NCBI RefSeq assembly: GCF_048403405.1
Contig: NZ_CP183129.1
Length of the DNA stretch: 64,000 nucleotides
DNA from: Escherichia coli
GTDB lineage: Bacteria; Pseudomonadota; Gammaproteobacteria; Enterobacterales; Enterobacteriaceae
Strand: one strand, 5' to 3'
Position numbers and translations under genes: made by a program. Position 1 is the stretch's first letter. Each line of letters starts with the position of its first letter. The notes beneath the pieces are model-generated. The model saw only the letters and a list, made by a program, of their open reading frames with translations, was not told the DNA's origin and made no database searches. Below are positions 57,635-59,014 of this stretch, piece after piece.

Positions 57635-58132
57635 ATGAACCCAATAACACTACAAATCATCAGCAATGCTATTGTTCTGCTTGGCGTTTTGGTTGCCATT
57701 GGAACCATTATCTACAATGTGCGTACCGCAAAAAAAACTCAAACGGCCAACTTTCTTTTTGAGAGTCGGCAAGATATGCAATATATAGAGTCATTGCATA
57801 CCCTGAAACAAGTGCATCGTTCAGGCAAATCATTTCGTTCTTATGTTTTTCCTTGTGATGGTTGCATAATAACAGATGAAGAAATGGCCGAGCGTCGAAA
57901 ATTTCAATATATTTTAAATTTTTACGAGCGAGTTGCTGTAAGTATTCGTGAAGGTATTTATGATGAAAAAATGATAAAAAGAACATCTTACACAACAGTT
58001 GTAGAGACATATGATATTGCCGAGCCATTAATTAAAGCAATCAGAGAAAGCATTAATTCGGATACTACATATCAAGAATTCGAATGGTTAGTAAGAAGAT
58101 GGAAAGCTAATCCTTTACGGAAAAACAAATAA
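57635..58132 (+). CDS. AT-rich single-pass membrane protein, unknown function
   Basis: 165-aa ORF with one N-terminal TM helix (ITLQIISNAIVLLGVLVAIGTIIYNV) and a charged soluble domain; visibly AT-rich against the GC-rich phage genes on either side. Confidence 0.7.
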   Translation: MNPITLQIISNAIVLLGVLVAIGTIIYNVRTAKKTQTANFLFESRQDMQYIESLHTLKQVHRSGKSFRSYVFPCDGCIITDEEMAERRKFQYILNFYERVAVSIREGIYDEKMIKRTSYTTVVETYDIAEPLIKAIRESINSDTTYQEFEWLVRRWKANPLRKNK

Positions 58133-58171
58133 TGTTTTACCCTTTAATTTACAAGTAACACAGGGGGAAGT

Positions 58172-59014
58172 GTGACACAGAATCCGTTTTCATTTTATGA
58201 CTTTTTGGGCTATCTAATTCCAGGTGGGTTATTCCTGTTTATCCTTTTTTTGTTTTCTATTGAAATTAACCCTGTTTATATAGAAGGTATTCTTAACCAT
58301 ATCCTGAAATATAAAGAAATAATAAGTGTATTTATATATGTGGCATTAATCGTTCTATCATATATTTCAGGTCACTTCATATCTATTCTATCATCCTGTT
58401 TAATTGAAAAATACATGAACAGTAAACTTGGGTATCCTTCAATTTATCTGTTTTCTAAAAGAAGCTCCCTGAAAATAAAACGACATAATACTAAGTTCAG
58501 TATAGTTAATTTTATTCGTGGAGTTTTTTTATTTCCTGTATCAGCTTTTGATAAAGCAGAACATCATAAAACCACACTGCATTCTATACTTATTAAAGTC
58601 TTTTGGCCGCAAATACGAGATGGTTATATAAATGTTTTTTCTGTATCTACGCTATATCGACGTAAGGGCTTGAGGGGCAATCTTTTTCGCCTTGCTTATC
58701 ATTATGTGTATGAACATTCTAAAAATCATCAGGTGAAAATGCAAAACTATGTTGCTTTGTATGGTTTTTGTAGAAACATTACATTTGTTTTTCTCGCTTC
58801 AGTCTGGTTGCTTATGTTCCTGCTCCTTCTATCCTTTTTAATAGATATAAATATCAGACTGTTACCTTTTTGTTTTCTTCTCTTGTTTTGTATTGCTGTA
58901 TCCCGAGTATTTTATTATGGTTTTGTTAAGTATTATCGCCGCTATTCTCTTGAGGTTTTAATGGCATTTGCGGTACTTCAGCACGATAAAAAAACTTCGG
59001 CAATTTCATCATGA
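58172..59014 (+). CDS. AT-rich polytopic membrane protein, unknown function
   Basis: 280-aa ORF (GTG start after AGGGGGA) with at least five hydrophobic helices; 39 nt downstream of the previous gene, same strand. Confidence 0.7.
   Translation: MTQNPFSFYDFLGYLIPGGLFLFILFLFSIEINPVYIEGILNHILKYKEIISVFIYVALIVLSYISGHFISILSSCLIEKYMNSKLGYPSIYLFSKRSSLKIKRHNTKFSIVNFIRGVFLFPVSAFDKAEHHKTTLHSILIKVFWPQIRDGYINVFSVSTLYRRKGLRGNLFRLAYHYVYEHSKNHQVKMQNYVALYGFCRNITFVFLASVWLLMFLLLLSFLIDINIRLLPFCFLLLFCIAVSRVFYYGFVKYYRRYSLEVLMAFAVLQHDKKTSAISS

Follow-up and report, generated by a model that had tools for sequence, protein, structure and literature searches.

Two adjacent genes for membrane proteins lie in a P2-family prophage within a 64,000-nt stretch of Escherichia coli DNA (contig NZ_CP183129.1, RefSeq assembly GCF_048403405.1), referred to here as the window. 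The first gene encodes a protein of the Pfam family DUF4760 with one transmembrane (TM) segment, and the second encodes a four-TM (4-TM) protein that resembles Csx27, an accessory protein of CRISPR-Cas. The two genes are independent, separately mobile single-gene add-ons that have become adjacent in one lineage, and DUF4760 is preceded by a conserved leader with a very short open reading frame (micro-ORF), a hairpin at its stop codon and an intrinsic terminator (Table 1). The best reading of these observations, to which we give an even chance, is that both genes are prophage add-ons of the exclusion or abortive-infection type, with DUF4760 gated by a leader-peptide attenuator. That at least one of the genes protects the host, by exclusion or by abortive infection, is a possibility that we rate, from context, somewhat below even.

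Evidence for the independence of the two genes came from their co-occurrence, which was scored with hidden Markov models of both proteins over 131 loci, a sample drawn from exact-protein look-ups, a one-genome-per-species scan and scans of IMG/VR with both alignments. The 4-TM gene was the only one of the pair in 60 of these loci and DUF4760 in 54. Both genes were found together in 17 loci, all of them copies of one E. coli cassette with protein identity of at least 95%. A preliminary description of this DNA had proposed a two-gene system, a proposal that does not survive the 114 loci in which one gene occurs alone. Among deposited phage genomes, DUF4760 stands alone in Citrobacter, Pseudomonas, Alteromonas and Acinetobacter phages, and the 4-TM gene stands alone in Klebsiella phages. 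In complete E. coli genomes, each gene occurs in 288 of 5426 (291 places each). Since nearly all of these copies are more than 95% identical, the linkage in E. coli represents one recent cassette and is not independent evidence for a functional pair.

Nucleotide comparisons with blastn delimit what moves. Alignments of other DUF4760 loci with the window break off at about 58105-58131, where DUF4760 ends, with the 4-TM gene left outside, and homology with two loci in unrelated contexts (L012 and L014) starts at 57538-57539, where the micro-ORF begins. Because the homology to unrelated contexts runs from the start of the micro-ORF to the stop codon of DUF4760, the mobile unit consists of micro-ORF, terminator and DUF4760. 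In many diverged P2-like phages, DUF4760 is the first gene after the portal gene and cos, in the same orientation (portals 65-78% identical, DUF4760 80-90%), and it is likewise 80-90% identical across genera. One P2-like locus has a portal that is 99% identical and a DUF4760 that is only 87% identical, which indicates that the module is exchanged. In other settings, DUF4760 lies directly 3' of cI (Pseudomonas phage D14E), adjoins the integrase gene (Acinetobacter and Alteromonas phages) or sits between the putative tail genes I and J (a Photorhabdus prophage); in several Enterobacterales it is an orphan, low in guanine plus cytosine (GC), between housekeeping genes with no phage around it. Homologues of the 4-TM gene that are 43-46% identical adjoin xis/int or follow DnaB in lambdoid prophages. 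A distant 4-TM family member lies in a defence island with AbiU2-HEPN, FRG, MmeI and DEAD+T5orf172 genes.

The leader peptide is conserved well beyond P2-like phages. The arrangement of micro-ORF, hairpin and T-run was found upstream of DUF4760 in each of the loci examined, whether in P2-like phages, in other prophages or in orphan chromosomal copies. A strict pattern for the end of the peptide, ...[DE][EV][FYVI][DE][GW][FLV]-stop, was matched upstream of DUF4760 in 57 of 72 loci, and the misses that were examined all showed variants by eye, save for leaders truncated by a contig end or replaced by an insertion sequence (IS). The consensus in Enterobacterales is M-[KR]-K-x-F-D-E-F-D-G-F, with variants such as DEFEGF, DEFEWV, DEYEGL and DVIDGL. 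More distant micro-ORFs end in ...EEYEGI (a Pseudomonas phage) and ...NEGWDF (an Acinetobacter phage), each followed by a terminator-like hairpin; the micro-ORF of an Alteromonas phage, MNLRDGWDDI, has no obvious hairpin after it. The peptide MKKFDEFDGF is identical in loci whose DUF4760 is just 39-41% identical to the query. What is conserved is the C-terminal 6-7 residues, the N-terminal length varying from 8 to 21 aa. Among 24 distinct 21-nt tails, changes in the last six codons are mostly synonymous (Asp GAT 13/GAC 8, Glu GAA 9/GAG 10 and Phe TTT 11/TTC 6 in the first three; Asp GAT 8/GAC 9, Gly in all four codons and Phe TTC 15/TTT 4 in the last three), which argues for selection on the peptide. 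A literature search for the DEFDGF motif found nothing relevant.

Additional evidence came from covariation in the leader RNA, measured on a covariance-model alignment of 32 distinct leaders, with the caveat that this alignment is itself fitted to the model; over the whole leader, 12 of 14 modelled pairs are changed on both sides. The terminator has compensatory changes in 9 of 9 modelled pairs, with 93% of cells paired, and its stem differs in sequence by lineage with pairing kept. In the small hairpin at the micro-ORF stop codon (helix 1), the Asp-Gly-Phe codons pair with the bases immediately 3' of the stop. Three of its five pairs are changed on both sides (outer pair CG 13, UA 11, AU 2), 89.9% of its cells are paired, and the covariation links synonymous positions of the Asp and Gly codons to the post-stop bases. 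In total, 91.9% of cells are paired, compared with 77% in shuffles, and none of 500 shuffles reached the observed score; controls in which the model was slid gave 35-60%. A covariance model of the leader (R1) has a single match in the window (57519-57653, 113 bits), and in 590 kb it matched only DUF4760 loci. Rfam gave no family at threshold for the leader, and the sub-threshold matches to SorX and caiA reflect hairpins. Between helix 1 and the terminator lies a box resembling an anti-Shine-Dalgarno sequence; its pairing with the Shine-Dalgarno (SD) sequence of the micro-ORF is possible in many enterobacterial copies, and most truncated leaders include it in their minimum-free-energy fold. Directly 3' of the T-run, the bases ATGGA (57621-57625 in the window) are nearly invariant from the enterobacterial copies to that of a Pseudomonas phage (CATGGAGAG). 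In the window they open a 5-codon ORF, MDEIG, whose stop overlaps the ATG of DUF4760; in other loci the frame is different.

These elements suggest a mechanism in which the micro-ORF and the terminator probably set when DUF4760 is made. Module A (about 57457-58132) would be self-contained, comprising a promoter, the 11-codon leader ORF, the stop-codon hairpin, the intrinsic terminator and DUF4760. Because the terminator ends only ~15 nt upstream of the DUF4760 start codon, DUF4760 mRNA could arise by terminator read-through only. We infer that leader-peptide transcription attenuation is the most likely logic: the behaviour of the ribosome on the ...DEFDGF-stop peptide would decide whether the terminator forms, and DUF4760 would be made only in a particular translational or physiological state, plausibly one that arises when a phage infects or the prophage is induced. 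The contribution of module B (58172-59014) would be the Csx27-like 4-TM protein, which elsewhere has its own AT-rich upstream region and stands alone in lambdoid prophages or a defence island. Both proteins would be expressed from the prophage and would protect the host as membrane proteins, through superinfection exclusion or abortive infection, each acting separately.

The DUF4760 leader has parallels with known attenuators. The order of SD, short ORF, intrinsic terminator and structural gene is that of trpL/pheL, tnaC and ermCL/catA86L-type leaders, and two of the features expected of an attenuator, namely an SD with a conserved leader ORF and a terminator before the structural gene, can be read from the sequence. 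A peptide under selection and covarying RNA helices are also shared with attenuator and arrest leaders. One important difference is that the DUF4760 leader has no runs of regulatory codons, no clear antiterminator and no Rfam family, and that it conserves instead an acidic/aromatic C-terminal hexapeptide abutting the stop codon.

The putative promoter of module A was read by eye, and a consensus promoter scan did not list it; a TTGAC-17-TA box is visible in the upstream sequences of the diverged P2-like loci L088-L103. Many DUF4760 loci (L088, L091, L014, L107 and others) have an ATTACC-N4-GGTAAT palindrome in the spacer of the putative promoter, which suggests an operator for a dimeric repressor. 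The equivalent segment of the window (57463-57479) is degenerate, and the palindrome is not recognizable there. Further upstream, the three direct TTGTGCA repeats may be an operator, or a site near cos to which a protein binds. Several E. coli genomes (H16-H20, an ST131 strain among them) have IS421 immediately upstream of DUF4760; these loci (L032/L085 in IMG/VR, and L135 from E. coli LS4, NZ_CP024717) carry it at a site equivalent to about 57597 in the window, and in L032 all of the leader as far as mid-way into the 5' arm of the terminator has given way to sequence from the IS. As judged from their sequences, the IS421 loci are natural leader mutants, in which promoter, micro-ORF and half of the terminator are cut off from DUF4760, and they offer ready-made material in several strains.

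The unit of peptide and hairpin also occurs away from DUF4760. A pattern scan of IMG/VR for the coding sequence of FDEFDGF-stop found 36 loci, of which 27 are followed by DUF4760; the other nine have the same coding sequence and a hairpin without DUF4760. In four contigs of ~100-175 kb (L136, L140, L142 and L149), a 21-aa ORF, MFSLRKFDEEDFEFFDEFDGF, overlaps the end of a small gene and lies upstream of genes of SbcD/SbcC type, like T4 47/46. In two lambdoid contigs (L150 and L165), MLDEFEGFDEFDGF lies between a Q-like antiterminator gene and an endolysin gene, and two further loci (L145 and L170) have isolated micro-ORFs encoding MFDEFDGF and MKAFDEFDGF. The peptide/hairpin unit thus seems, from its distribution, to be portable among unrelated phages, in keeping either with a general attenuator that senses translation or with a peptide that is functional in itself.

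The product of the first gene matches DUF4760 (PF15956) with E 2.1e-34, residues 12-156 aligning to positions 2-141 of the 141 in the model. RefSeq names it "DUF4760 domain-containing protein", and it falls in the PHROG family phrog_2284. A Kyte-Doolittle scan places its TM segment at about residues 5-28, and the AlphaFold model shows an all-helical domain after it, a domain that we infer to be cytoplasmic from the RTAKK stretch following the TM helix (positive-inside rule). Many Arg, Lys and Glu residues are invariant across the family, among them R45, R68, E98, E111, K115 and R137. A PADLOC match of this protein to PDC-S35 (E 0.014) was not reproduced by eight relatives and was set aside as noise; Pfam matches to Deltameth_res and Nlp36 were likewise rejected as insignificant, being short and confined to hydrophobic stretches. 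NCBIfam has no family for either protein of the cassette, and a literature search for DUF4760 found nothing bearing on phage defence.

When the high-confidence model of DUF4760 was compared with other structures by two methods, the EP domain (PF18117) of the plant proteins EDS1, PAD4 and SAG101 came first, clearly ahead of the other matches. Homology at the level of sequence was rejected, both to solved structures and to EP: a profile search of DUF4760 against the sequences of the Protein Data Bank (PDB) was empty, and hhalign of DUF4760 against EP gave a probability of 0.3% against a single sequence and 3% with alignments of 72 (DUF4760) and 121 (EP) rows, its only local match falling on the EDS1 stretch VEPLDIAN. 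The likeness is a specific resemblance of the predicted fold, at the fold level only, and any link between the two families is speculative. Unlike proteins of the EDS1 family, DUF4760 is a 165-aa protein with a TM helix and a single helical domain, lacks the N-terminal lipase-like domain, is anchored in the membrane, comes from prokaryotes or viruses and is not accompanied by a TIR enzyme. If the link were true, DUF4760 would be the first known EP-domain relative outside the EDS1 family.

The second protein has hydrophobic stretches at about residues 8-38, 44-78 and 198-253 (Kyte-Doolittle), the last of which is read as two segments, giving four TM segments, of which TM2 and TM3 are separated by a conserved loop of ~125 aa. 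Pfam gave no significant match for the protein, which belongs to phrog_12528; its family comprises 1048 clusters at 50% identity in Proteobacteria and Bacteroidota, essentially all of them uncharacterized. Its AlphaFold2 model is mediocre, with a predicted local distance difference test score of 70, and its matches in the AlphaFold database are essentially uncharacterized or generically named. The Csx27 profile of PADLOC matches residues 6-244 at E 1.6e-5, which is weak for a TM protein. Among 10 diverse relatives, the same profile matches 7 (E 1e-6 to 1e-8), in several cases through an N-terminal motif alone; the matches take in the N-terminal NPFSxYDFLGYxIPGG region. No conserved leader was found upstream of the 4-TM gene, and its stand-alone homologues have ordinary AT-rich, promoter-like upstream regions.

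Makarova and colleagues are said to have included Csx27 in a family analysis in 2019. The likeness of the 4-TM protein to Csx27, which accompanies type VI-B1 CRISPR-Cas as an accessory membrane protein (Smargon et al. 2017), consists of the four TM helices, the reproducible but weak profile match and the spread in Bacteroidota and Proteobacteria. The differences are that the E-values are modest (1e-5 to 1e-8), that the 4-TM gene is a stand-alone prophage add-on, and that no Cas13b, cas gene or CRISPR was found among the called neighbours of the gene in the window or of its homologues in prophages and the defence island.

The same pair of proteins has been catalogued before. Rousset et al. 2022 (Cell Host Microbe; PMC9122126) include the pair in their Table S5A/B, with S5B giving it as system #3, "DUF4760", with 1102 occurrences in the hotspot between gpQ and gpA; its protein 1 is identical to that of the window, its protein 2 is near-identical, and the location is the same. 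The table adds a Phobius note, "1 TM in protein 1, 4 TM in protein 2", in agreement with hydropathy and the AlphaFold helices, so the single-pass and polytopic membrane proteins of the preliminary description are borne out. Its view of the system as undescribed has to be given up, and so does part of its statement that the genes belong to no family, since gene 1 is a DUF4760 gene and both products are in PHROG families; the statement stands for gene 2 insofar as Pfam offers no significant match. Profile searches thus place gene 1 and leave Csx27 as the only PADLOC match for gene 2, and they give a characterized function to neither. Rousset et al. catalogue one two-gene system, whereas the present analysis resolves two modules and a conserved leader upstream of gene 1.

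The gpQ-gpA hotspot of P2 is rich in defence cargo (Rousset et al. 2022, PMC9122126). Temperate phages carry single-gene membrane superinfection-exclusion add-ons, for which HK97 gp15, P22 SieA and T4 Imm serve as examples. In common with these, the proteins of the cassette are small inner-membrane proteins, are encoded by low-GC accessory genes in typical positions (tail module, cI/int, hotspots) and are presumably expressed from the prophage. Unlike them, they show no sequence relation to the annotated exclusion families in PHROGs, NCBIfam and PADLOC. To our knowledge, no leader-peptide/terminator gate has been described for the genes of HK97 gp15, SieA or Imm. The role of P22 SieA as a superinfection-exclusion membrane protein is documented in PMC10461980.

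Several points weigh against the reading of the cassette as two host-protective add-ons, one of them gated by attenuation. A convincing conserved antiterminator was not found in the leader, the recurrent elements being the stop-codon hairpin and the SD:anti-SD pairing; the ACCUCU box that provides the latter is not conserved in distant members, and the distance from the micro-ORF stop to the terminator varies from ~10 to 60 nt among loci. The nine loci in which the FDEFDGF-stop unit occurs without DUF4760 suggest that the peptide may have its own function. Independent action of the two proteins is made less secure by the spacer of only 39 nt ahead of the 4-TM gene, within which the terminator scan finds no terminator: in this lineage the 4-TM gene may be co-transcribed with DUF4760, and functional coupling is hence possible. 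With regard to defence, neither protein has a reproducible match in PADLOC-DB v2 besides Csx27, itself an accessory protein that down-regulates Cas13b and whose own mechanism is unknown. A text search did not find the cassette sequences in Table S2 of PMC9122126, the part of that study listing validated and additionally tested systems, and the hotspot also holds non-defence cargo such as partition genes and toxins (PMC9122126).

The genes are neighbours in one orientation, 39 nt apart without an intervening terminator, and their products could also be obligate partners in a single two-component system for abortive infection or exclusion at the envelope, with logic like that of RexAB; the perfect linkage in 288 complete E. 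coli genomes and the listing of a single system by Rousset et al. speak for it. We regard this as most improbable. The linkage in E. coli is that of one recent cassette, the conserved mobile unit extends no further than the stop codon of DUF4760, and the genes diverge to different degrees, DUF4760 remaining 80-90% identical where the nearest outside 4-TM relatives are at 43-47%; the count of 114 single-gene loci, set against 17 loci of the same cassette, speaks against an obligate pair. In a different role for the leader, its peptide would bind the cytoplasmic domain of DUF4760 and keep it inactive, in the manner of an antitoxin or decoy, and loss of the labile peptide, or its displacement by a phage protein with a similar acidic C-terminal tail, would activate DUF4760. 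The peptide is more conserved in amino acid sequence than DUF4760 itself, it stands alone with its hairpin as a short gene in other phage contexts, and DUF4760 has many invariant Arg, Lys and Glu residues. Acidic aromatic C-terminal tails, which the peptide resembles, are protein-binding motifs in E. coli SSB, T7 gp2.5 and the clamp-binding peptide of RB69 polymerase. The placement of the terminator gives the upstream product in excess, so that the peptide would greatly outnumber the membrane protein. We consider the inhibitory peptide unlikely, since 8-11 residues are unusually few for a stable functional product, since conservation of the C-terminal 6-7 residues with a variable N-terminal length is typical of nascent-chain arrest peptides, and since the covariation of the stop-codon hairpin with synonymous sites points to a role at the level of RNA or the ribosome.

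It is likewise unlikely that neither gene is anti-phage and that they instead serve the phage cycle or lysogenic conversion (lysis timing, envelope remodelling, or an addiction module stabilizing a prophage with the partition genes ParMR) or are neutral passengers. Consistent with such a role, DUF4760 keeps its position and orientation after cos in many diverged P2-like phages and could be a semi-core function, the FDEFDGF leader unit precedes lytic-cycle genes elsewhere (SbcCD-like 47/46, and the late region after Q), and a partition system adjoins the cassette in a hotspot that holds non-defence cargo. However, the module of DUF4760 is also found next to cI or int in phages of unrelated type and as orphans between housekeeping genes without a phage, most DUF4760 loci have no ParMR, a 4-TM relative lies in a defence island, and several strains tolerate IS421 in the leader, an argument against a function that the phage could not do without. 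Finally, the structural match raises the idea that DUF4760 is a membrane-anchored receptor and effector whose EP-like fold, as modelled, would bind a nucleotide-derived second messenger and then perturb the membrane. Plant EDS1 heterodimers bind TIR products. We judge this very unlikely, given that sequence comparisons lend it no support (hhalign 3%, empty PDB profile search, Pfam match to DUF4760 only), that the structural alignment takes in the TM helix, that likeness between all-helical bundles can be convergent, and that no signal-producing enzyme adjoins DUF4760 in the loci inspected. A broader proposal, in which DUF4760 would be a stand-alone membrane-anchored counterpart of the plant EP domain, gated by a portable and previously undescribed arrest-type leader that senses translation in the infected cell, in which the two would make up a single-gene membrane effector triggered by infection, and in which the same leader would time lytic genes in unrelated phages, seems to us quite unlikely.

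The cassette is an ordinary kind of hotspot cargo that had already been catalogued. In the survey of Rousset et al. it ranks third in frequency among the cargo of the P2 hotspot in E. coli (1102 loci), and it is present in ~5% of complete E. coli genomes, including those of the ST131 strains EC958 and JJ1887. The new elements are the leader and the EP-like fold, both of which offer leads that can be tested, for a prophage gene that is very common in E. coli. The independence of the modules changes how they should be cloned and tested, namely each gene alone, with and without the leader. The leader extends from enterobacterial phages to those of Pseudomonas and Acinetobacter, and it may reveal the cellular state that switches on a prophage membrane protein. 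Unrelated phages have the peptide/hairpin unit in front of lytic genes, which suggests that phages use a regulatory device of this kind more generally.

Table 1. Features of the cassette, its leader and the flanking prophage genes, in window coordinates
Feature	Position	Strand	Remarks
Terminase gene	54189-55940		Upstream flank, with P2-type scaffold and portal genes
Portal gene (gpQ)	55940-56986		Upstream flank
Perfect inverted repeat, CGGGGCATAAA-AAA-TTTATGCCCCG	57012-57036		Just 3' of the portal stop codon
Non-coding region common to other P2-like DUF4760 loci	57284-57537	+	blastn homology to L088/L097 starts at 57284
Three direct TTGTGCA repeats (AAATTGTGCAAATTTGTGCACTTTTGTGCAG)	~57405-57437		Same place in diverged P2-like loci L088-L103
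Sigma-70-like promoter candidate	-35 TTGACC 57457-57462, 17-nt spacer, -10 TAGTTT 57480-57485	+	Read by eye
Leader micro-ORF, MKKMYDEFDGF-stop (11 codons)	57538-57573	+	Preceded by Shine-Dalgarno GAGGGGG
Helix 1, small hairpin with part of the micro-ORF stop in its loop	57564-57577	+	RNAalifold
Conserved TTGACCTCT box, anti-Shine-Dalgarno-like (ACCUCU)	57580-57588	+	Nearly invariant in the enterobacterial alignment
Intrinsic terminator	57592-57616, T-run to 57620	+	10-bp GC-rich stem, 5-nt loop; terminator scan
DUF4760 gene (gene 1)	57635-58132	+	165 aa, ATG start, 1 TM
4-TM gene (gene 2)	58172-59014	+	280 aa, GTG start, Shine-Dalgarno GGGGGAA
Perfect 9-bp inverted repeat	59025-59049		Between the convergent 4-TM gene and parR; read from the sequence
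ParR-like (annotated 59098-59412) and ParM genes	59098-60376	minus	phrog_691 and phrog_2515 "partition protein"; RefSeq/GenBank annotation
gpA-type replication gene	60453-63320	minus	955 aa

The surroundings of the cassette largely agree with the preliminary description. Reading of the ORFs confirmed two co-oriented genes on the plus strand, and their GC content of ~30-36%, within a region (about 57400-59200) at 0.27-0.40 compared with 0.51-0.60 in the flanking phage genes, accords with AT-rich, acquired cargo. The host element is a P88/186-like (P2-family) prophage, and three deposited phages of the P2 family from E. coli, one of which bears the label P88-like, match this DNA at 99.8% identity. 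The description had placed the cassette between portal Q and the replication region; the gpQ-gpA position is correct, and the ParM/ParR pair that lies in between had been omitted. Its cos-proximal hotspot with interchangeable cargo is supported by the identified flanks, by the gpQ/cos-gpA position and by content that varies among related phages, other P2-like loci having DUF4760 alone or with different cargo. The canonical 19-nt cos sequence of P2 had no match at up to 3 mismatches, and the cos site of the prophage was not located. Partial matches to the region, presumably to its flanks, were found in 605 E. coli genomes, of which only 288 have the cassette.

The ParM/ParR pair is separate cargo in the same hotspot and part of neither membrane module. 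Rousset et al. 2022 (PMC9122126) enter it as system #1 in their Table S5B and report that about a quarter of P2-like phages carry a partition pair and may persist as plasmids. The pair is present in 17 of 17 loci with both membrane genes, where the contig reaches far enough. The terminator scan missed both perfect inverted repeats near the cassette, because the one between the 4-TM gene and parR has no clear T-run and the one behind the portal gene has none. The former is probably a bidirectional terminator, and at the latter the late transcript of P-Q probably ends.

The gpA of the window is only 31-37% identical to that of other DUF4760-bearing P2-like loci, whose portals are 65-78% identical; because gpA identity is far below portal identity, the replication module appears mosaic. 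At 955 aa, the protein is presumably longer than gpA of P2 or 186. The record of one related locus, L001 (PV468777), annotates a 174-aa hypothetical protein (4988-5512, minus strand) between the portal gene and DUF4760; no such ORF is open in the equivalent part of the window (about 57001-57525), where the longest is 42-50 aa. In L103, two further low-GC genes lie on the plus strand behind DUF4760 (4503-6271), encoding a 369-aa ParA/MinD-like ATPase (MKIISVFNNKGGVGKTT...) and a 218-aa protein, and they look like different hotspot cargo stacked behind the DUF4760 module.

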